Positions 3,156-32,000 are shown, counted from the stretch's first letter. The stretch is 32,000 bases of DNA from Aciduliprofundum boonei T469 (GCF_000025665.1 NC_013926.1:1110001-1142000); one strand, 5' to 3'. Notes: generated by a model from the sequence alone, not told the origin. Translations and numbers: made by a program.

Positions 3156-3566
3156 ATGAATAAGAGGGGAAAGAAAAAGAGTGCTCCCAAGCCTTACGAG
3201 ATGCCAAAACTGTTTGAGGAGGAGCATGAAGAGGTTTCATCTTATAAAGAGCTTGATGCTCAGAACCATATTGAAGCTGTTAGAGAGGAGGAAAAAATGG
3301 AAAGATATAAAGAAGCTTCAAAATTGAGAAAGAAGGCTGCAGAGTTTGAAAAGAAAGCTGCGTTTTATCATAGGAAATATAAAGAAGAGATGGAAAAAGT
3401 GGCAAAATATCAGGCATATAAGGCGAAATACAAAGATAAAGAGCATGAAATAAAGCAGAAGATTAAAGAGTTAAAAAGGAGGATTGAAGATTATCAAATG
3501 GAGTTGAAGAATGCAGAATCATTGAAGAAGAGGGGTGAGTTGCAACCCCACATAAAAATAAAATAG
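3156..3566 (+). CDS. N-terminal fragment of the IS-disrupted coiled-coil protein. Its last about 11 codons are read from the IS left end.
   Basis: The track ORF is 3084-3566. MNKRGKKK at 3156 is the plausible start, because the preceding 24 codons are hydrophobic read-through of the promoter region. The sequence is lysine/glutamate-rich and coiled-coil-like. Confidence 0.6.
   Translation: MNKRGKKKSAPKPYEMPKLFEEEHEEVSSYKELDAQNHIEAVREEEKMERYKEASKLRKKAAEFEKKAAFYHRKYKEEMEKVAKYQAYKAKYKDKEHEIKQKIKELKRRIEDYQMELKNAESLKKRGELQPHIKIK
3525..3532. repeat. Left 8-bp target-site duplication of IS copy A (AAGAAGAG).
   Basis: It is identical to 4470-4477, immediately after the IS right end. Confidence 0.85.
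3552..3565 (+). promoter_or_regulatory. TATA-like box inside the IS left end, about 25 nt upstream of the transposase ATG.
   Basis: ataaaaataaaata is centred about 25 nt before ATG 3583. Confidence 0.35.
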
Positions 3567-3582
3567 GGGATATAAATAAAGG

Positions 3583-4413
3583 ATGAGCAGGAAATTAGAC
3601 CTGTACAAGGTTGTGAAAATGGGGATGAAAGCTCTAAAGAGAGCAAATATTCCTCTTTACTGGAGCAAGTACTCTAGGAAAGATTACACTCTGCACCAGC
3701 ACATGATGCTGATAGTGCTGACACAGTATGTGGGAAGTATAGAAAGAATGCTCCAGATTGTGCGAGAAATGAGAAAGATAAAGAGGGTAATGAGATTGAA
3801 GAAAATCCCCCATAAAAGCACAATTTCAAGAGAGTTGAGAAGAATACCAGAACGATGGATTCGCATTGTGCTTAGAGAAATAGTGAAAATAATGGGAATA
3901 CCCAATAAATTTGCAGTGGATTCCACAGGTATTCAAATTTATTACCGTTCATACTACTACACACAGCGAATCGGAGAAGTAGGAAAAATAAGAGAAGGAT
4001 TGAAATTGCATGCTGCTGTGGATATTGAGAGGAAGCTCATTACCAATGCAATAGTTACAAAATGGCACACTAACGATTCACCGTACCTCATTCCTCTTTT
4101 GGAGGAAGAGAGAGTAAAAGAAGTGTATGCAGATAAGGGCTATGATTCTCTACGTAACATACGATTTGTTCTGAATAAAGGAGGAACTCCATACATAGCA
4201 ATCCGTAATAAAGCAAGAAGAGGATTGCGAAGGAGATTGTTAGAAAAGAGCAAATCACCTGACTGGAAAAAGAAGTACTCGCATAGAAATGTAATTGAAT
4301 CAGTCTTCCACTCTTTCAAAAGAGTTGTTGGAGATTACATATTTTCCCATTCTTTCTCTGGTGCTTCTAAACTCCTGCTCTTCAAAGTTCTTGCCTATGA
4401 TCTCTATGTCTAA
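3583..4413 (+). CDS. DDE transposase (IS4/IS5 superfamily, YREK signature).
   Basis: 276 aa. The putative catalytic D residues are in DSTGIQ and ADKGYDS. The Y-x2-R-x3-E-x6-K motif appears as YSHRNVIESVFHSFK. Confidence 0.9.
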   Translation: MSRKLDLYKVVKMGMKALKRANIPLYWSKYSRKDYTLHQHMMLIVLTQYVGSIERMLQIVREMRKIKRVMRLKKIPHKSTISRELRRIPERWIRIVLREIVKIMGIPNKFAVDSTGIQIYYRSYYYTQRIGEVGKIREGLKLHAAVDIERKLITNAIVTKWHTNDSPYLIPLLEEERVKEVYADKGYDSLRNIRFVLNKGGTPYIAIRNKARRGLRRRLLEKSKSPDWKKKYSHRNVIESVFHSFKRVVGDYIFSHSFSGASKLLLFKVLAYDLYV

Positions 4414-4420
4414 TCCTTCC

Positions 4421-4450
4421 TTATTTTTATTCTTCTTTTTTCATGTTTTT
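4421..4450 (+). terminator. T-rich tract in the IS right end, just after the transposase stop.
   Basis: The sequence is ttatttttattcttcttttttcatgttttt. The oligo-T runs resemble archaeal terminators. Confidence 0.3.
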
Positions 4451-4691
4451 CGAGGAATTCAACTTATCCAAGAAGAGAGAAAGCTTAAGAGCTAAAATTG
4501 CAAAGTTACAAACTAGAATATCGGCTTTGAACTCAAAAATAAGTGCATTGAGAGATAAACAGGCAGAGTATGTAAAAAAGATGAGCGAATATAAAGCAAA
4601 GGCAGCAAGATACTATGAGAAAAGCAAGGATTATGAGAGAGAATCAATGATTTTTAATAAAACTGCTGAATCTCTTGAGGGTATGGAATGA
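4443..4691 (+). CDS. C-terminal fragment of the IS-disrupted coiled-coil protein. The ATG and first 9 codons come from the IS right end.
   Basis: The ORF reads MFFEEFNLS|KKRESLRAKIAKLQTRISALNSK... ATG 4443 lies inside the IS and is in frame with the downstream host sequence. Confidence 0.55.
   Translation: MFFEEFNLSKKRESLRAKIAKLQTRISALNSKISALRDKQAEYVKKMSEYKAKAARYYEKSKDYERESMIFNKTAESLEGME
4470..4477. repeat. Right 8-bp target-site duplication of IS copy A (AAGAAGAG).
   Basis: It is identical to 3525-3532. Confidence 0.85.
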
Positions 4692-14483: not shown

Positions 14484-15896
14484 TTATAATCGCTTTGCCC
14501 TTGCCTCTATCTCATCCATAACGAAATTCTCGGCGAGTTCTAAGCTCGTTCTATCTATCCATATCTCATTTTCTCTCTCTGCAAGAAATCTTACCAAGGA
14601 TGAAGAAGCAGCTATCTGCAATGCCCTATCAATTATCCTCAAACTCACAGGCGCATTGTGCTCGTTTATTGCCTCTGCTATATCATCTCCAATTCTAATA
14701 AAATCATCTTCATCTACAATTACCCTTGCATTTTGCTTATTAAGAAGATGATATGTATAGGTCATATGCTTCCTAAGAGGCTCTGCTAAGTAATAATCCA
14801 CCTTGCCTGCAGCGATGCGCTTCATATTCTCCCAAATCAACTTTCTTCTCTCGTGAGTATTGAGAAATAATTTGCAAAGCATCCTATCCTCCACGGCGTT
14901 GAAATTTGGGTCGTTTATTGTGCTTTTCCATCTTCCTTTATTTACTTGGGTGTTGTAGTTCACTATGAAGAAACTTGTGACCTTATAGGGCCCAATTGTG
15001 GCGGTTCGAGTTTCATCCCTGACCTCTCTTCGCTCCATAACTAACTTAAGTTTCTCTACCATTCCTCGATAGGCAAAGAAATCTTTGAACTCCGGTATGA
15101 CCCAATCCACGGGATAATCTTGATACGCTTCCAGTATAGCTATGAACATCTTAGGAGTCATACCCTGTGCATAGCGAAGACGACCTATCATACCATGGGG
15201 CGGCACTCCCTTCTCCTCCTTGCCCCGAAGCAAATCGTCCGTGGCGAATGTTTTGCCCGTGCCGGGCTCACCAAAGTATGCAAGGGAGAAGCCCGTTTGA
15301 TTTATCCTGCGCTCAGGATTTGCAGATGAGTAGATAGGTACATTGGCTATGGAGTACTGCTGTATTATGGGTAACAAAGCATCCATATACAGCTTATCGC
15401 CCATTATGCTCTTCACATACTCCACGATATCCCCTATAGAGTGAATTTGCGAGATCCATTCTTCCACATCATCCTCTCTCACATTCTTAACAAAAAACTC
15501 ATACTCAGTCTTCAATCTAAGCACTACATCTTGATACTCCCGCATCGCCTCCTCAGTGCTTAATTTCATGTTCTCTCCGCCATATCTACTTAACCATTTC
15601 CTAATCTCATCCGAAGCAAGGAGAGAGTATAATTTTGCACCACCTTCTTCTCCCACTTCTATCATAAGCCCCGTGTTTCTCAGCCTGCCTATTATATTAT
15701 ACGCCCCCGTCTTCGCTATGAGCCATTCTTTCGCTGCTTTCTGCGTCCACGCTCTTTGCATTTTCTGTAAATAAAGGAGGGCTTCCATCTCTTTCAAATC
15801 CATACTGCTCTGAACGACATACCTCATCCAGTTGTTAAACTGCTCCTTCGGCACCTCTGGCTCTTTGGAAATCCTAACCAATCTCTTTTTCTTCAT
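14484..15896 (-). CDS. Predicted wHTH plus AAA+-type P-loop ATPase of unrecognised family.
   Basis: 470 aa. The N-terminal roughly 100 aa look like a winged helix (...AKEWLIAKTGAYNIIGRLRNTGLMIEVGEEGGAKLYSL). Walker A is GEPGTGKTF, the candidate Walker B is VDWVIPEF, the sensor-1-like segment is FFIVNYNT, and VEDRM is a Lon/MCM-style arginine-finger context. Confidence 0.6.
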   Translation of the reverse strand: MKKKRLVRISKEPEVPKEQFNNWMRYVVQSSMDLKEMEALLYLQKMQRAWTQKAAKEWLIAKTGAYNIIGRLRNTGLMIEVGEEGGAKLYSLLASDEIRKWLSRYGGENMKLSTEEAMREYQDVVLRLKTEYEFFVKNVREDDVEEWISQIHSIGDIVEYVKSIMGDKLYMDALLPIIQQYSIANVPIYSSANPERRINQTGFSLAYFGEPGTGKTFATDDLLRGKEEKGVPPHGMIGRLRYAQGMTPKMFIAILEAYQDYPVDWVIPEFKDFFAYRGMVEKLKLVMERREVRDETRTATIGPYKVTSFFIVNYNTQVNKGRWKSTINDPNFNAVEDRMLCKLFLNTHERRKLIWENMKRIAAGKVDYYLAEPLRKHMTYTYHLLNKQNARVIVDEDDFIRIGDDIAEAINEHNAPVSLRIIDRALQIAASSSLVRFLAERENEIWIDRTSLELAENFVMDEIEARAKRL

Positions 15897-15941: not shown

Positions 15942-16955
15942 ATGAACTATTTAATACACGAAATCTCTCACCGCCCAATGAGAAAAATAAAACATTTTAA
16001 TTACAAATTCGGCGAAGATACCATATTTACAGATTTCTGCAGAGCCGAGAATGGCTGGATGCTCACAGGAGATGTAAAAATAGATGGAAAATACAAGATT
16101 CTCCTATTGAAAACCAATGAAAATAGGGAGAAATCGTGGAGTAAAATCTATGGAAATGAATATGAGTACGAAGCTCAGACAATAATTAAAGGAAGAAATG
16201 GATATTTAATTGGTGGTAATGCTTATGGTAAAGCAACAGAGAGCGGTGGGAAGGGATGGAAAGCGTACATACTCTCTGTGGATGAAGATGGTGAAAAATT
16301 AAGGGAAAGTAGTTACACTATTAGTGGCAATGATACGATTTACTCGATGATTAGCAAAGAAAATGAGTTCTGGAGTATGGGCGAAAGTAGAGACGAAGAA
16401 AACTACATTTTCACAATGAAGTTGGACAAAGAGCTTAAATTATTAGATATTAAAAAGTCCGAAAAGTATGAGGATGTACTTGCAGGAGGAATATTCTCCA
16501 GATTTCTATGCTACTCTTACAAGCACTTAAATAGATGGTATGGCAGAATAATTCGGATAAATGGAGAATTGGAAGAAATATGGAAGAGGGAGATTCCAAA
16601 TCTCCTGATTTATTCAGCCATGGAAATCGATGATTCGTTATTGGTTGTTGGAACAAAAGATAATATAGGAATTGCAATGAAAATAGATGAAAACGGGGAG
16701 AGAGAAATTAGATTCAAAAATAGCACAATATTGAGCGCTGAGATTCAAGGAGATCTAATAATCCTTGCAGGTGAGTATGGAGAAAAGCCTGTAATTTATA
16801 TGTCAAATAAAAACTTGAAAATGATTGATAAATTTGTTGATCATTTTACCGGATGGTACGAAAAAGCTTTTTCCATATCTTCCGAGAAGATTATGGCTTT
16901 AGGATATTCTTCCGTTAAGAGAGAGGCCGTTATTAGCATATTGACAATAACTTAA
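15942..16955 (+). CDS. Beta-propeller-like repeat protein of unknown function, with no signal peptide.
   Basis: 337 aa with recurring units of the form aromatic-x-hydrophobic-x-G...(D/E)xxG, such as NGWMLTGDVKIDGKYKILLLKT, NGYLIGGNAYG...AYILSVDEDGEK and DSLLVVGTKDNIGIAMKIDENGE. The true start might be M13 at 15978. Confidence 0.5.
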   Translation: MNYLIHEISHRPMRKIKHFNYKFGEDTIFTDFCRAENGWMLTGDVKIDGKYKILLLKTNENREKSWSKIYGNEYEYEAQTIIKGRNGYLIGGNAYGKATESGGKGWKAYILSVDEDGEKLRESSYTISGNDTIYSMISKENEFWSMGESRDEENYIFTMKLDKELKLLDIKKSEKYEDVLAGGIFSRFLCYSYKHLNRWYGRIIRINGELEEIWKREIPNLLIYSAMEIDDSLLVVGTKDNIGIAMKIDENGEREIRFKNSTILSAEIQGDLIILAGEYGEKPVIYMSNKNLKMIDKFVDHFTGWYEKAFSISSEKIMALGYSSVKREAVISILTIT

Positions 16956-21038: not shown

Positions 21039-21926
21039 ATGTGTAAGCTTGCCCATTATGGCAACTGTGACGAAGAAACAAAAGATGATGAGTATTGCAT
21101 TTTTCATAAGCCGAATAAAACTGATGAGGAGGCAAAGAAATTTTATGAAATGTTAATTTTAAAATATAAACCCGAAACGGAAGAAACATATGATGATGTT
21201 ATTGGGTTCTTTGATAGATTCATCTTTGACGGGAACATTAACTTTAGTGGATTCGTATTTCCTGAAATTCCAGAGGATTGCAATTTTACTTTTAGGGAAA
21301 TAGAGTTCAGAGGTGATGTTAAATTTGATGATGCTGTGTTTGAATTTACTCCTGAATTTAACAACTCTCAGTTTGATTTTGCTTCCTTCAATGGTACCCA
21401 ATTTAAAAAAGGTGCGGATTTTACACACTCCCATTTTAAAAAGAGTGTTTGGTTTCGTAATACTAAATTTTATGATATCACCGTTCTTGGTCTATCCACT
21501 TTTGAAGAAATGGTATTTGCGGAGAATATTTATTTTGATACACATTGTTTTTCATTTTCAACTTTTAAAAAGGGGGTTGATTTTAAGGGTATAAGCGGCA
21601 AAAGGATAGAACTTATTAGAACTAAATTTTATGGGCCGGCTTTGTTTTCAATTGACTCTGTAAAAGATATGAGATTAGACGGAGCTACTTTTGAGGATTC
21701 TCTTCTCTTTGTGCCTTTCGGAAGTGGAGGAGAGATTGGGGAAATAAGCTTTAATTTCACTCAATTTAATAAAGATTTATCTCTTGAGTTTGTTTTAGAG
21801 AAAATAGAAAATCTGGTAAGTAGAGCAGAAGCCTGCAGAGTTCAAAGAAAAATCTATGAAAGAGAAGATGGGAGAGATCTAGCTGACGATTTGTTTCGTA
21901 AAGGGGTGAGTTGCAACCCCACATAA
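21039..21926 (+). CDS. N-terminal fragment carrying the Cys/His cluster and pentapeptide-repeat domain. The last about 8 codons are read from the IS.
   Basis: The start is MCKLAHYGNCDEETKDDEYCIFHKPNK. It is followed by about 200 aa with 5-residue periodicity centred on F/L, for example FDDAVFEFTPEFNNSQFDFASFNGTQFKKGADFTHSHFKKSVWFRNTKF. Confidence 0.7.
   Translation: MCKLAHYGNCDEETKDDEYCIFHKPNKTDEEAKKFYEMLILKYKPETEETYDDVIGFFDRFIFDGNINFSGFVFPEIPEDCNFTFREIEFRGDVKFDDAVFEFTPEFNNSQFDFASFNGTQFKKGADFTHSHFKKSVWFRNTKFYDITVLGLSTFEEMVFAENIYFDTHCFSFSTFKKGVDFKGISGKRIELIRTKFYGPALFSIDSVKDMRLDGATFEDSLLFVPFGSGGEIGEISFNFTQFNKDLSLEFVLEKIENLVSRAEACRVQRKIYEREDGRDLADDLFRKGVSCNPT
21896..21903. repeat. Left 8-bp target-site duplication of IS copy B (TCGTAAAG).
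   Basis: It is identical to 22841-22848. Confidence 0.85.
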
Positions 21927-22840
21927 AAATAAAATAGGGGATATAAATAAAGGATGAGCAGGAAATTAGACCTGTACAAGGTTGTGAAAATGGGGATGAA
22001 AGCTCTAAAGAGAGCAAATATTCCTCTTTACTGGAGCAAGTACTCTAGGAAAGATTACACTCTGCACCAGCACATGATGCTGATAGTGCTGACACAGTAT
22101 GTGGGAAGTATAGAAAGAATGCTCCAGATTGTGCGAGAAATGAGAAAGATAAAGAGGGTAATGAGATTGAAGAAAATCCCCCATAAAAGCACAATTTCAA
22201 GAGAGTTGAGAAGAATACCAGAACGATGGATTCGCATTGTGCTTAGAGAAATAGTGAAAATAATGGGAATACCCAATAAATTTGCAGTGGATTCCACAGG
22301 TATTCAAATTTATTACCGTTCATACTACTACACACAGCGAATCGGAGAAGTAGGAAAAATAAGAGAAGGATTGAAATTGCATGCTGCTGTGGATATTGAG
22401 AGGAAGCTCATTACCAATGCAATAGTTACAAAATGGCACACTAACGATTCACCGTACCTCATTCCTCTTTTGGAGGAAGAGAGAGTAAAAGAAGTGTATG
22501 CAGATAAGGGCTATGATTCTCTACGTAACATACGATTTGTTCTGAATAAAGGAGGAACTCCATACATAGCAATCCGTAATAAAGCAAGAAGAGGATTGCG
22601 AAGGAGATTGTTAGAAAAGAGCAAATCACCTGACTGGAAAAAGAAGTACTCGCATAGAAATGTAATTGAATCAGTCTTCCACTCTTTCAAAAGAGTTGTT
22701 GGAGATTACATATTTTCCCATTCTTTCTCTGGTGCTTCTAAACTCCTGCTCTTCAAAGTTCTTGCCTATGATCTCTATGTCTAATCCTTCCTTATTTTTA
22801 TTCTTCTTTTTTCATGTTTTTCGAGGAATTCAACTTATCC
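21904..22840 (+). mobile_element. 937-bp insertion sequence, copy B, apparently identical to copy A.
   Basis: The offset to copy A is a constant 18371 nt. The transposase ORF and the antisense ORF are identical in the track, and every stretch I spot-checked, including both ends, is identical. Confidence 0.9.
21954..22784 (+). CDS. DDE transposase (identical to 3583-4413).
   Basis: The 276-aa translation is identical to copy A. Confidence 0.9.
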   Translation: MSRKLDLYKVVKMGMKALKRANIPLYWSKYSRKDYTLHQHMMLIVLTQYVGSIERMLQIVREMRKIKRVMRLKKIPHKSTISRELRRIPERWIRIVLREIVKIMGIPNKFAVDSTGIQIYYRSYYYTQRIGEVGKIREGLKLHAAVDIERKLITNAIVTKWHTNDSPYLIPLLEEERVKEVYADKGYDSLRNIRFVLNKGGTPYIAIRNKARRGLRRRLLEKSKSPDWKKKYSHRNVIESVFHSFKRVVGDYIFSHSFSGASKLLLFKVLAYDLYV

Positions 22841-28490: not shown

Positions 28491-28500
28491 ATTTAATATC
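28491..28500 (+). promoter_or_regulatory. TATA box for the KaiC-like/CheY operon.
   Basis: atttaatatc is centred about 28 nt upstream of ATG 28523. Confidence 0.4.
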
Positions 28501-28522: not shown

Positions 28523-29896
28523 ATGAACTGGCCAACAGAGATTGGAAATTTTCTGCAAAAGAATGGCACCGTGCTCTTGATTAGAGGTGAGCCAGGTACT
28601 GGGAAAACCTTATTTTCTCTAACTCTAATGAAAGATTTGAAAAATACGATTTTAATTGCTCCTAGAAAAGTTTATCAAGATATAGTAAGGAACTATCCAT
28701 GGATTGATGAAGAGGCAAAGAATAGGATTTTGATAATTGATGAAAAGTATGATTATGAGACAACGCACAAGTTCGGAAACTTATTTTTCTTACTTCCAGA
28801 ATCGTTCAGACTCGCATTGAACAAGATAGAAGAGGGTAGCATAAATACAATAATCTTGGACAGCTGGTATACTTTAATTGAAGAGTTGAAGTATAAATCC
28901 ATAGAGGAGCAAGAGAGAAAGGATATATACGATCCTGAGCGCTTCCTTTTAAACCTCGTTAAGCTCTCTGATTTAGGTGTAAATTTGATAATAAATAGAG
29001 AGGGAGACAAAGATGACACTCTTTCATATGTGGCAGATGGAGTTATAACATTAAAGAAAAATATTGAAAATGGAAGGCTCTACAGATATTTGATACTGGA
29101 TAAGTTAAGGGGAGTGGGAATTAAAAAATCTGAGTACTTTTTCACCCTAAAGAACGGGATGGCTAATATATTAATATCACATCCATTCAAACATCCCAAA
29201 GAGATAATTGATATTCCAAAGAAGGATATAAAGATCGGGTATGGAGTGCCTTCAATGGTATTTGATGACATTTTGAGTTTTGAGAGGGGAAATACAGTAC
29301 TTTACGATTTTGAAGAGTATGTGCCAAAAATATATCATTTTATCACTCTTATGAGCACAACTGCAAATTTCTTAAAGAACGGAATAAAAAGTATAATTTT
29401 ACCTCCTAATGATATGGATATGAACGAGATAAAATATCAAATCTATCTCTTTAACATCCACAAATACATTTCAAACCTGAGGATAATCTATCCTGAAAAA
29501 GAGCTTGAGGATTTTGTTGTAGAAACCAATTTCTATAATTTAAAAAGGATAATTGAGAGTATGGAGAGGTGCATAACCGAGGAAGATATGAATCCTCTAG
29601 TAATTATTGGATACGACAGGCTATTTAACTTCTTGGAAGAACACCAGATAATGCAACTAATTGATTATATGAGGAACTTTGTTAGAAAACACGGTGGCTT
29701 GCTCATAATCTCAGGAAAGATGTCAAATAAAGCAATAAAGAACTTCAGTGCTGGCTTAGCAGATATCTATCTTAAATTTAAGAATGTAAATGGCGACATA
29801 ATTATGTATGGAATAAAACCATGGACAAGGGTGTATCACTTGAGCCTATCTTCAGAGAAAGGATATCCAGAGATAATAAAGGAGGAGGTGTTATGA
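28523..29896 (+). CDS. KaiC/RecA-superfamily ATPase with two domains: an N-terminal domain with an intact P-loop and a C-terminal domain lacking one.
   Basis: The N-domain has LLIRGEPGTGKTLFSL (Walker A), TIILDSW (Walker B) and VADGVITLKK...RYLILDKLRGV, which is the KaiC-like layout. The second half (about aa 240-457) has similar beta-alpha periodicity but no GxxGxGKT. Confidence 0.75.
   Translation: MNWPTEIGNFLQKNGTVLLIRGEPGTGKTLFSLTLMKDLKNTILIAPRKVYQDIVRNYPWIDEEAKNRILIIDEKYDYETTHKFGNLFFLLPESFRLALNKIEEGSINTIILDSWYTLIEELKYKSIEEQERKDIYDPERFLLNLVKLSDLGVNLIINREGDKDDTLSYVADGVITLKKNIENGRLYRYLILDKLRGVGIKKSEYFFTLKNGMANILISHPFKHPKEIIDIPKKDIKIGYGVPSMVFDDILSFERGNTVLYDFEEYVPKIYHFITLMSTTANFLKNGIKSIILPPNDMDMNEIKYQIYLFNIHKYISNLRIIYPEKELEDFVVETNFYNLKRIIESMERCITEEDMNPLVIIGYDRLFNFLEEHQIMQLIDYMRNFVRKHGGLLIISGKMSNKAIKNFSAGLADIYLKFKNVNGDIIMYGIKPWTRVYHLSLSSEKGYPEIIKEEVL
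29881..29890 (+). promoter_or_regulatory. Shine-Dalgarno-type ribosome-binding site for the CheY gene.
   Basis: ggaggaggtg ends 3 nt before ATG 29893 and lies inside the 3' end of the KaiC-like gene. Confidence 0.6.
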
Positions 29897-30252
29897 ATAA
29901 GCTACTTTTGGCTGATGATTCAGAATTGTTCTACAAATTCCTAAGAGATGTTCTTAAAAAAGAGGGCATCGAAATAATCTGGGCAAAAAACAAGAAAGAA
30001 GCTATTGAGAAATTCAAAGAAGAGAAGCCAGATATAGTTTTGGTGGATATTATACTCTCAGATTCAAATGGAATTGATGTAATTAAAGAGATAAAAGCTC
30101 TGGACAAAGATGCGAATATAATGGTGATAAGTGGACTTGATAAACAGGATGTGATAAAGGAAGCTTTGGATGCGGGAGCAAGGGACTATATAGTGAAGAA
30201 TGTAAGCCCAAAATATTTCCGTGAGGAAATTTTAAAAGCTTTGAAGACCTAG
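29893..30252 (+). CDS. Stand-alone CheY-like receiver domain protein.
   Basis: About 119 aa. The acidic pair is LLLADDS, the phospho-acceptor context is IVLVDIILSDSNG, the conserved S is in IMVISGL and the conserved K is in DYIVKN. The ATG overlaps the upstream stop (ATGA). The track's 29821 start is an upstream extension. Confidence 0.88.
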   Translation: MNKLLLADDSELFYKFLRDVLKKEGIEIIWAKNKKEAIEKFKEEKPDIVLVDIILSDSNGIDVIKEIKALDKDANIMVISGLDKQDVIKEALDAGARDYIVKNVSPKYFREEILKALKT

Positions 30253-30279
30253 CTCCAAGATTAATTTTTGCAAAAACAA

Positions 30280-30287
30280 TTATATAA
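30280..30287 (+). promoter_or_regulatory. TATA box for the 7TM-DUF835 gene.
   Basis: ttatataa is centred about 26 nt upstream of ATG 30310. Confidence 0.45.
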
Positions 30288-30309
30288 GAGCAAAGCTGAT
30301 GCTATAATA

Positions 30310-31836
30310 ATGGATGGAGGGGTGATTGCCGATATAGCCACTATTCTGATTTTCAGTTTCCTTTGCTCCTATTTATATTATAAATTGGGTAACTCAGTTC
30401 TTAGTTATGTAGTACTCCTATTTAGCTCGGGAGTAGCCATATTGGCAATATCGGATATAATCTCACTTTTATATCAAAACTTGCCGTCGGTGGAGTGCAT
30501 TGCAGGAAAATTTACAGCGATGGGATCACTTATTGCAATACTTGGGCTTTTACACCTAGTTTCTATTTTCCCTCGTAAAAGTACGCGTATCCACACAATA
30601 CTTCCATCAATCTATTTTATATCTGCAATTCAAATCATTTACCTATTCTTCACACCCCACTTTCTTTCCTGCGATCCAATAATGGGGGGAGTTAGAAATC
30701 ATCTATGGTCCATTTATGCGCTATGGGCTTATTCACTTCTTATTTTTGCCTCTTTAATTCCTATTTATCATATGTTCACCTCCATAACAAAAATTGAAAA
30801 AATTGCAACATTCTATATGGTAATTGGCTCACTCTTGGTAATAGGATACCTTGGACTTGCACAAATTGTTCCGATGTATTATCCAGAGTTTGAAGTTTTC
30901 AGTGCTGTTCACATTCTACCTTTAATGGGTGTGCTTTTCACTGTTGGTATCATAAAATACGGCATATATGTTATGGTTCCGTATAAAGAGGTAAGTAAAA
31001 AATCTGAAAATTTACCTGAAATAAGATATGGAGAGATCAATGGAATAGCCAACATAGATGCTGCCTATAAAATATTTAGACAAGAAATATCGGAGCATTT
31101 AGGTATGGTTATCACCATTCGCCCACCCACAATAATTAAAGAAAGATATTCTATAGAGAGAACACCTATTATATGGCTTACATATTTCTCTAATGGATAC
31201 GATCTGGCAATAGTTCCAGATAGATTGCACTTTGAGGCTACATATTCCATAGCAAATTTTCTAGACAATGGTGGAGAAATTGTAATTATGGATGGTGTAG
31301 AATACATAATAAAAAATTATGGGAGGCGATTTTTTGCTGAATTTTTAGAGGAGATAAAAACAGTAAAAAATGATGCTACAATAATTCTCGCCGTAAACTC
31401 ATTAGATTGCTTAGAGGGACTTGCTGATAATGTTATCTACACCGAAGGAGCTATTGAGGCTCCCAGGGTTATAATGGTCAATAATATAAAGTATATTAAA
31501 AAGAGAGATTTGCTAATAATAACTTCAAAATCAAGGAAGCATCTAGAGTTCGAATTTGAAGAAAATCCAGAAATAATAAGCATATCTAATGAGTTCAATA
31601 TAGACCGCTTTTTGTTTGAAGGAATAGGAAAAATAGAAGATAGCCCAAAGAAGAATGTGTATATAGAATGCATGGATTATATAATGTCAATGGGTGAGGA
31701 AAAGGATGTCATGAACTTCATAAAAGATATAATAGACATAATACTTTTCCGCAATGGATATGTATTCCTAAGATACACTCCAAGGGCTCTAGAATCACCG
31801 GCGATTAAACAATTTGTTGAAGAAATAAAATTATAA
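30310..31836 (+). CDS. 7-TM membrane protein with a cytoplasmic DUF835-type domain, apparently duplicated.
   Basis: There are seven hydrophobic helices up to about aa 235. They are followed by ...MVITIRPPTIIKERYSIERTPIIWLTYFSNGYDLAIVPDRL...GGEIVIMDGVEYIIKNYGRRFFAEFLEEIK...ATIILAVN, which is the DUF835 pattern (TR.P...y.....WLT....i.P..l...vvldglEYLi...F). The ATG at 30310 is preferred over the track's TTG at 30268 because of TATA spacing. Confidence 0.72.
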   Translation: MDGGVIADIATILIFSFLCSYLYYKLGNSVLSYVVLLFSSGVAILAISDIISLLYQNLPSVECIAGKFTAMGSLIAILGLLHLVSIFPRKSTRIHTILPSIYFISAIQIIYLFFTPHFLSCDPIMGGVRNHLWSIYALWAYSLLIFASLIPIYHMFTSITKIEKIATFYMVIGSLLVIGYLGLAQIVPMYYPEFEVFSAVHILPLMGVLFTVGIIKYGIYVMVPYKEVSKKSENLPEIRYGEINGIANIDAAYKIFRQEISEHLGMVITIRPPTIIKERYSIERTPIIWLTYFSNGYDLAIVPDRLHFEATYSIANFLDNGGEIVIMDGVEYIIKNYGRRFFAEFLEEIKTVKNDATIILAVNSLDCLEGLADNVIYTEGAIEAPRVIMVNNIKYIKKRDLLIITSKSRKHLEFEFEENPEIISISNEFNIDRFLFEGIGKIEDSPKKNVYIECMDYIMSMGEEKDVMNFIKDIIDIILFRNGYVFLRYTPRALESPAIKQFVEEIKL

Positions 31837-31839
31837 GAG

Positions 31840-32000
31840 CTAAAATTCCTCTGCGGGACATTTTCCAAGGCAGTCCAAGCAATGTATACATTTCTCTTCT
31901 TTTATTGCTATCTTTCCATTTTCAAGATATAAAGCCCCAACAGGACATCTCCCAAGACATATACCGCATCCAATGCACTCCTGAGAGCGTATTATTAAAG
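31840..32000 (-). CDS. 4Fe-4S dicluster (ferredoxin-type) domain protein. This is the C-terminal end; the gene runs off the window end.
   Basis: My own minus-strand translation reads ...LNIRSQECIGCGICLGRCPVGALYLENGKIAIKEEKCIHCLDCLGKCPAEEF*. It contains two CxxCxxCxxxCP motifs, and the stop is at 31842-31840. Confidence 0.8.
   Translation of the reverse strand, partial: LIIRSQECIGCGICLGRCPVGALYLENGKIAIKEEKCIHCLDCLGKCPAEEF

Follow-up and report, generated by a model that had tools for sequence, protein, structure and literature searches.

Many stand-alone receivers and KaiC-family proteins of archaea have no known partners, and in the cyanobacterial system the pseudo-receiver of KaiA regulates KaiC. 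Makarova and colleagues reportedly proposed in 2017 that KaiC-like ATPases act as archaeal signalling hubs. Regulation is also described for the haloarchaeal protein GvpD, which oligomerises and requires its Walker motifs and an Arg-rich region for breakdown of the activator GvpE (PMC4390858). The Halobacterium gvpE gene starts 5 nucleotides (nt) after gvpD. Here we analyse a 32,000-nt stretch of the Aciduliprofundum boonei T469 genome (NC_013926.1:1110001-1142000; ‘the window’), in which a gene for a GvpD-like protein (gene 1) overlaps the gene for a stand-alone receiver (gene 2). A third gene on the same strand (gene 3) encodes a membrane protein with DUF835 domains. Related loci and proteins are denoted by L and P numbers, respectively.

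KaiC-family ATPases have been described in several arrangements. They are paired with KaiB-like or DEATH-like second components, and arCOG01174 members with such components lie near type IV pilus loci (Makarova et al. 2016). Fusion response regulators of the iKaiC-REC and REC-DUF835 types also exist, the receiver domain (REC) being N-terminal in REC-DUF835 proteins; the reported fusions come from Methanosarcinaceae, Methanomicrobia and methanogenic Thermoplasmata and not from Aciduliprofundum (Galperin et al. 2018). Fusions of this kind support a direct interaction between receivers and KaiC-type domains. KaiA3 is reported to have a receiver-like N-domain (PMC11372060), another instance of receiver-like regulation of KaiC homologues. 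In Haloferax volcanii, CirA and a receiver-containing regulator were found in one genetic screen.

The A. boonei gene 1 protein resembles GvpD in having a P-loop N-terminal domain followed by a C-terminal domain without a P-loop, in carrying Arg at the site of the KaiC catalytic Glu (‘PRK’ in gene 1, ‘STR’ in GvpD) and in being encoded directly upstream of a small partner gene on the same strand. It differs in that the partner is a receiver domain rather than the leucine-zipper activator GvpE, and the RRR motif of the GvpD C-terminus is not present. The setting differs as well: A. boonei is a thermoacidophile, and none of the neighbours that Pfam annotates in the 10 kb to each side of the pair belongs to a Gvp family. 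Like cyanobacterial KaiC, which operates with KaiA, KaiB and SasA-RpaA, gene 1 has two tandem RecA-like domains; unlike KaiC, it has no second P-loop and its catalytic Glu pair is replaced, and no kaiB-like gene is found among the annotated neighbours. The archaeal fusion regulators link the same REC, KaiC-like and DUF835 domain types, but in A. boonei these domains reside on separate proteins, with an overlapping operon, and the KaiC-type protein is a member of the GvpD branch. The arCOG01174 systems likewise combine a KaiC-family protein with a small second component, and type IV pilus or archaellin genes adjoin the pair in L035 and L002/L005; in A. boonei, however, no pilus or archaellum genes flank the pair, and the second component is a receiver. 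Whereas gene 1 has two domains, CirA is a KaiC with one.

The GvpD-like protein and its receiver

Gene 1 can be aligned with GvpD over its entire length. BLASTP matches residues 2-457 to residues 18-492 of GvpD from Halobacterium pNRC200 (E 7e-25, 24% identity), and hhalign gives a probability of 99.4% over 424 columns, the C-terminal domain of gene 1 aligning to the C-terminal half of GvpD. In Pfam, GvpD_P-loop (PF07088) covers residues 10-193 (E 8.3e-15, 55.6 bits against a cut-off of 24) and extends over profile positions 5-189 of 189; all 21 members of the gene 1 clade match this family. A tblastn search of all plasmids with P0034, the sister protein and nearest outgroup, returned gvpD genes only. 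On these alignments, the homology between gene 1 and haloarchaeal GvpD runs from end to end, and GvpD homologue is a more precise description than KaiC-like ATPase. Metagenome-assembled genomes of Aciduliprofundum and Thermoplasmata supply the closest homologues. A second GvpD family, GvpD_bR2 (PF20440), is matched by P0034 and by L009. No gene 1 match to this model was reported at E<=1, and five of the 21 clade members match it weakly (best 0.0084); weak DUF835 matches (0.003) occur together with those to GvpD_bR2 (0.008) in five of the 21.

An earlier note on this DNA, made from the sequence alone, had described three genes on the + strand, and open reading frame (ORF) calling returned all three. 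It had assigned gene 1 to the KaiC/RecA superfamily with a C-terminal domain that had lost its P-loop, and both assignments hold. The Pfam KaiC ATPase family matches gene 1 at E 7.1e-12. The AlphaFold2 (AF2) model, with a predicted local distance difference test (pLDDT) score of 90, contains a second alpha/beta domain, and its best Foldseek match is a full-length two-domain KaiC (E 4e-24, ~480 columns). Because of this match, the C-terminal half is best described as a second RecA-like domain minus its P-loop. Of the features that define KaiC, namely two RecA-like domains that each contain Walker A and a catalytic Glu pair, gene 1 retains the two-domain fold but has no second P-loop and has Arg48/Lys49 for Glu77/Glu78, and it falls far below the cut-offs of the NCBIfam KaiC equivalogs (NF006799, 36.7 against 408 bits; TIGR02655, 19.9 against 546 bits).

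Conservation across the 21-sequence alignment is strong in both halves of gene 1. The Walker A residues G22, P24, G25, T26, G27, K28 and T29 and the Walker B residues D113, S114 and W115 are invariant, and KLRG-type interface residues are kept. The N-terminal domain had been called intact in the earlier note; this is true of the Walker motifs, but the catalytic pair of KaiC, Glu77 and Glu78, is replaced by Arg48 and Lys49. Arg and Lys each occupy position 48 in 7 of the 21 sequences, Glu does so in 6 and Gly in 1, and Lys49 is nearly invariant. The wider GvpD-like family and GvpD itself have ‘STRV’ at the site of the Glu pair. The second domain, which in KaiC is the autokinase domain, has no P-loop. 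The N-terminal domain should bind nucleotide, but without a canonical general base, and because Arg48 and Lys49 stand in for the catalytic Glu pair, the gene 1 oligomer probably hydrolyses ATP only weakly. A Glu at position 48 (window 28664-28666; ‘TTEK’) is found in the P0008-P0014 subclade, at 57-59% identity, where A. boonei and the others have R, K or G. ATP hydrolysis may thus differ between sublineages.

Gene 2 encodes a typical receiver. Pfam Response_reg (PF00072) matches at E 3.5e-25 (88.7 bits against a cut-off of 30.2), and the phospho-acceptor residues, all of which the earlier note had reported, are D8, D9, D52, S80 and K102. The same set (D/E8, D9, D52, S/T80 and K102) is kept in all nine receiver orthologues. 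In Pfam, the receiver carries no output domain of its own. A chemotaxis CheY identity was rejected, as the CheY_Halo model scores 80.7 bits against a cut-off of 200, and the annotated neighbours include no chemotaxis family. A defence-system assignment was also rejected; the PADLOC matches were limited to weak, generic ones to P-loop and REC models.

The junction between the two genes is tight, as had been proposed. The gene 2 ATG overlaps the gene 1 TGA as ATGA, and the Shine-Dalgarno sequence GGAGGAGGTG lies within the 3' end of gene 1. The pair and its ATGA overlap are retained in nine of nine independent loci, whose gene 1 proteins span 43-100% identity, and GGAGG-type motifs precede the receiver ATG in most of the related loci. 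The upstream neighbours of the pair vary and include UMP kinase (AA_kinase), PCNA, a type IV pilus cluster or DUF835. Upstream of gene 1 there is a candidate TATA box (TTTAATAT) and no Shine-Dalgarno sequence 5' of the ATG, an arrangement consistent with a leaderless gene at the head of an operon. As read from the sequence, the two genes constitute a conserved operon with translational coupling, in which a GvpD-type protein is combined with a genuine phospho-accepting receiver.

Genes around the pair

The source of phosphate for the receiver had been left unexplained in the earlier note, which saw no histidine kinase in the vicinity. The absence is confirmed: neither the ~28 kb of the window upstream of the pair nor the 10 kb downstream on the source scaffold, DS990527.1 of assembly GCA_000151085.1, was found to contain a histidine kinase gene or an additional receiver or DUF835 gene. 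The donor is less of a puzzle than it seemed. According to a published census, A. boonei has two histidine kinases and four response regulators, none adjacent to each other, which indicates that unlinked partners are the rule in this genome. The kinases appear as Aboo_0120 and Aboo_0497 in Galperin 2018, and the REC-only proteins of A. boonei number three. In L002, L005 and L007, a PAS histidine kinase is located ~2 kb downstream of the pair, beyond a PAPS-reductase gene. In L066, a tightly packed operon on one strand encodes the GvpD-like protein, the receiver, a KaiC, a DUF835 protein and a 1366-residue PAS/GAF-HisKA-HATPase_c kinase. Judged by these arrangements, an ordinary histidine kinase is the likely phosphodonor, and the kinase appears to be part of the ancestral gene set. 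Gene 1 is an unlikely donor because it has neither the catalytic Glu pair nor a P-loop in its second domain, and because kinases are present in relatives.

DUF835 and KaiC genes also recur near the pair. A soluble 200-residue DUF835 protein and a single-domain KaiC are encoded directly 5' of it in L002/L005, and in L066, a sister lineage, a KaiC and a 282-residue DUF835 protein are encoded 3' of it. The presence of DUF835 beside the pair in these two other arrangements suggests a link that is real but facultative, with DUF835 and single-domain KaiC proteins as recurrent, optional partners. Other genes found at these loci include, in L035 (1-5857), two T2SSE ATPases and two T2SSF/TadC genes placed divergently 5' of the pair and, in L002/L005 (2700-7300), a 538-residue archaellin-type protein and two single-domain KaiC genes 5' of the pair. 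These surface-filament genes are a hint of a pilus- or archaellum-related output.

On the downstream side, a convergent gene for a 580-residue PUA/PAPS-reductase/4Fe-4S protein (window 31840-32000 on the - strand, where it leaves the window; L001 13318-15060) shows synteny with the pair in all lineages examined (43-100% identity). The receiver gene abuts this convergent gene in L033, L034, L035, L004 and L007, and in L033-L035 and L004 the 3' end of the PUA/PAPS-reductase gene overlaps the receiver stop by 4 nt.

Gene 3 lies between the receiver and PUA/PAPS-reductase genes only in A. boonei and in L032, a relative at 80% identity. It is absent from the locus of the pair in the five lineages just named, where the receiver gene directly meets the convergent gene, and displaced orthologues (49-56% identity) adjoin a PIN gene at other loci. 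On two independent contigs, L036 (942-3007) and L037 (5455-7524), the gene 3 orthologue stands beside a divergent PIN-domain gene (DUF3368/PIN_6). In all, eight orthologues were found, at 48-95% identity. The three-gene module of the earlier note is therefore not supported: its KaiC-like/receiver ATGA junction survives a survey of gene neighbourhoods and the adjacent gene 3 does not. From its distribution, gene 3 is a recent and optional neighbour of the pair. It is also, as had been suggested, a gene with its own predicted promoter, since a TATA box (TTATATAA) precedes its ATG by ~26 nt and a T5 run follows gene 2. The same ttatataa is kept in L032, the sole other genome in which gene 3 accompanies the pair.

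The gene 3 protein combines a membrane domain with two KaiC-like modules. A hydropathy scan finds seven segments, and Lys and Arg are concentrated in every other loop and in the stretch that follows TM7, a charge distribution that predicts a cytoplasmic C-terminal half. Pfam DUF835 (PF05763) matches two stretches (E 2.7e-18; 66.5 bits, cut-off 33.1), the best of them covering residues 250-363. The AF2 model contains seven long helices and is only moderately reliable (pLDDT 68); its top Foldseek matches are full-length two-domain KaiC proteins (E 1e-6, ~400 columns). DUF835 has been labelled ‘iKaiC’ (Galperin 2018). The earlier suggestion that these modules are degenerate KaiC folds is thus borne out by the model, in which they share a KaiC-like fold, and no GxxxxGK[ST] motif was noted when the family alignment of the cytoplasmic half was read by eye. 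Shallow alignments limit direct comparison with gene 1: local hhalign of its N- and C-terminal domains with the two gene 3 modules gives probabilities of <=20%. Of the domain composition anticipated for gene 3, the DUF835 domains and seven transmembrane (TM) helices were recovered. The HisKA_7TM-like N-terminus was not detected: Pfam HisKA_7TM (PF16927) gives no match at E<=1. In hhalign, the comparison with a HisKA_7TM-DUF835 protein of L005 reaches a probability of 18.6%.

Coordinates of the features discussed are collected in Table 1. Two further observations concern other parts of the window. An insertion sequence of 939 bp is present in two copies (3531-4469 and 21902-22840) that are 100% identical and in direct orientation, each encoding a 276-residue DDE_Tnp_1 transposase. 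Their separate flanking duplication-like sequences (AAGAAG at one copy, TCGTAA at the other) suggest recent independent insertions. Between the MCM and class-I aminoacyl-tRNA synthetase genes there are two divergent ORFs, of 470 residues (14484-15896, - strand) and 337 residues (15942-16955, + strand), neither of which has a Pfam match at E<=1e-5.

Table 1. Features of the GvpD-like/receiver locus and of gene 3, numbered from the first nucleotide of the window
Feature	Position	Strand	Description	Basis
Candidate archaeal TATA box, TTTAATAT	28492-28499	+	24-31 nt 5' of gene 1 ATG	Sequence read directly; inference
Gene 1	28523-29896	+	457 residues; GvpD-like, two-domain KaiC/RecA superfamily protein	ORF calling, Pfam, Foldseek, BLASTP
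Walker A, GEPGTGKT	28586-28609	+	Gene 1 residues 22-29	21-homologue alignment
R48-K49	28664-28669	+	Gene 1; position of KaiC catalytic Glu77/Glu78	Profile alignment to KaiC CI and SSO2452
Walker B strand, IILDSW	28850-28867	+	Gene 1 residues 110-115	21-homologue alignment
C-terminal domain of gene 1	29207-29893	+	Residues ~229-457; RecA/KaiC-like, without P-loop	AF2, Foldseek, GvpD alignment
Shine-Dalgarno sequence, GGAGGAGGTG	29881-29890	+	For gene 2; inside gene 1 3' end	Read directly
Gene 2	29893-30252	+	119 residues; stand-alone receiver (REC)	Pfam Response_reg
T5 run	30265-30269	+	Candidate archaeal terminator signal, 3' of gene 2 stop	Read directly; inference
TATA box, TTATATAA	30280-30287	+	For gene 3; ~26 nt before ATG	Read directly
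Gene 3	30310-31836	+	508 residues; seven TM helices and two tandem DUF835 domains	Pfam, hydropathy, AF2
Seven-helix TM domain of gene 3	30319-30978	+	Residues 4-223; predicted N-terminus outside, C-terminus inside	Hydropathy, AF2
Cytoplasmic half of gene 3	30991-31833	+	Residues 228-508; two alpha/beta modules without Walker A	Pfam, AF2, Foldseek

Small partners in the wider GvpD-like family

The GvpD-like family extends well beyond the gene 1 clade. An exhaustive profile search recovered 1111 cluster representatives at E<=1e-3, many of them full length. A receiver as the family-wide partner was rejected, as no adjacent receiver was found in ~24 distant loci, a number that represents a sample and not a census. 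Small co-directional genes are nevertheless common beside distant GvpD-like genes; at three loci the product belongs to HTH_20 and at two it is a winged helix-turn-helix (HTH) protein. Together with gvpD-gvpE, these small partners of unrelated classes suggest a general cassette in which a GvpD-like protein is combined with a small cognate partner, the receiver being one type.

A further family of ~100-150 residues is encoded on the same strand beside GvpD-like genes in six loci (L009, L012, L013, L014, L048 and L050), four of them from Nitrososphaerales-type archaea and two on unassigned metagenome contigs. Of five members scanned with Pfam, two have weak matches to NitrOD5 (‘archaeal DEATH-like’) with E values of 0.001-0.007, below threshold.

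Proposed signal flow through the pair

We favour, at a probability of roughly 0.45, a pathway from a kinase to the receiver and from there to the GvpD-like oligomer. A canonical PAS-type histidine kinase, unlinked in A. boonei and linked or in the same operon in relatives, would phosphorylate Asp52 of the receiver, which would then bind the GvpD-like oligomer. The oligomer would bind ATP at its subunit interfaces, probably with poor hydrolysis, and binding of the receiver would alter its ATP-gated action on a downstream target. The model for that action is GvpD, which relies on its P-loop to bind GvpE, the product of the gene that follows, and to eliminate it. DUF835 and KaiC proteins perhaps co-assemble with the pair. 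Gene 3 would have been relocated to its side in the A. boonei lineage, and the membrane-anchored gene 3 protein may hold the complex at the membrane or modulate it there. The binding of the two proteins and the direction of flow are proposals. The receiver is placed at the input because REC is N-terminal in REC-DUF835 fusions and because the L066 operon includes a kinase, and the GvpD homology of gene 1 points to partner-binding regulation rather than a phosphorelay.

Several points weigh against this pathway. There is no linked kinase in the six closest lineages, and when the PAS histidine kinase of L002 served as query, the search for its A. boonei orthologue returned generic PAS kinases only. 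Hydrolysis may not be lost throughout the clade, given the Glu48 of the P0008-P0014 subclade. If the parallel with gvpDE and with the HTH partners is taken strictly, the GvpD-like protein could have the small partner as its target and not as its input. This last point leads to the main rival explanation, in which the GvpD-like protein would bind, sequester or destabilise the receiver in an ATP-dependent way and thereby set the amount available to an unlinked kinase and a separate output; the signal would flow from gene 1 to receiver availability and not from the receiver to gene 1. In favour of this explanation, GvpD targets the protein encoded directly downstream of it, the order and tight coupling of the genes are as in gvpDE, and the small partner at other GvpD-like loci is an HTH protein, a typical output. 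We nevertheless consider the receiver unlikely to be the target, since it occupies the N-terminal, input position in the fused REC-DUF835 regulators, has no output domain of its own and, in L066, shares its operon with a kinase, which suggests that it is the entry point.

Two explanations dispense with the histidine kinase. In the relay proposed by the earlier note, a seven-helix sensor would signal through degenerate KaiC-like modules to the KaiC-like ATPase, which would autophosphorylate and pass the phosphate to the receiver Asp. The adjacency of the three genes in A. boonei and L032, the intact Walker A and B motifs of gene 1, the occurrence of DUF835 genes near the pair in three different arrangements and the lack of a kinase within ~28 kb upstream or 10 kb downstream all speak for this route. 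It is made very unlikely by the missing Glu pair of gene 1, by the absence of a P-loop from its autokinase-equivalent domain, by the failure of gene 3 to be conserved with the pair and by the presence of canonical kinases in the A. boonei genome and, in relatives, in cis. We know of no precedent for transfer of a KaiC-type Ser/Thr phosphate to a receiver Asp. It is still less probable that the GvpD-like protein itself sets the phosphorylation of the receiver, either by donating phosphate in an ATP-dependent manner or by serving as its dedicated phosphatase or protector, the input coming from the seven-helix membrane protein with DUF835 domains. If true, this would amount to an archaeal pathway of Asp phosphorylation with no need for a histidine kinase.

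The favoured pathway gives gene 3 an accessory role at most, and gene 3 might have no functional relation to the pair at all. It would then be a separate DUF835-class membrane receiver, translocated by chance between the receiver and convergent PAPS-reductase genes. Its own TATA box and the T-run upstream of it fit such an origin, as do the orthologues beside a PIN gene elsewhere and its absence from the locus in five related lineages. A chance event of this kind seems rather doubtful to us, however, because DUF835 is found directly beside the pair in two other independent arrangements (L002/L005 and L066), more than a single chance adjacency predicts.

The association of KaiC-family proteins, receivers and DUF835, the fusion proteins and the idea of a signalling hub are already in the literature. 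The identification of gene 1 as a full-length GvpD homologue with a receiver in the gvpE position appears to be new, as do the strict translational coupling of the two genes and the evidence that a kinase belonged to the ancestral gene set; the article by Makarova, Galperin and Koonin (2017, mBio) may list the pair. The pair fits current ideas and sharpens them without overturning them. If the proposed pathway is correct, a compact and strictly conserved operon would wire a two-component receiver to a GvpD-type regulator of the KaiC family, and would provide a testable junction between bacterial-type two-component machinery and the proposed KaiC-based signalling network of archaea. It would also suggest that GvpD with a small cognate partner is a general regulatory cassette whose use extends beyond gas vesicles.

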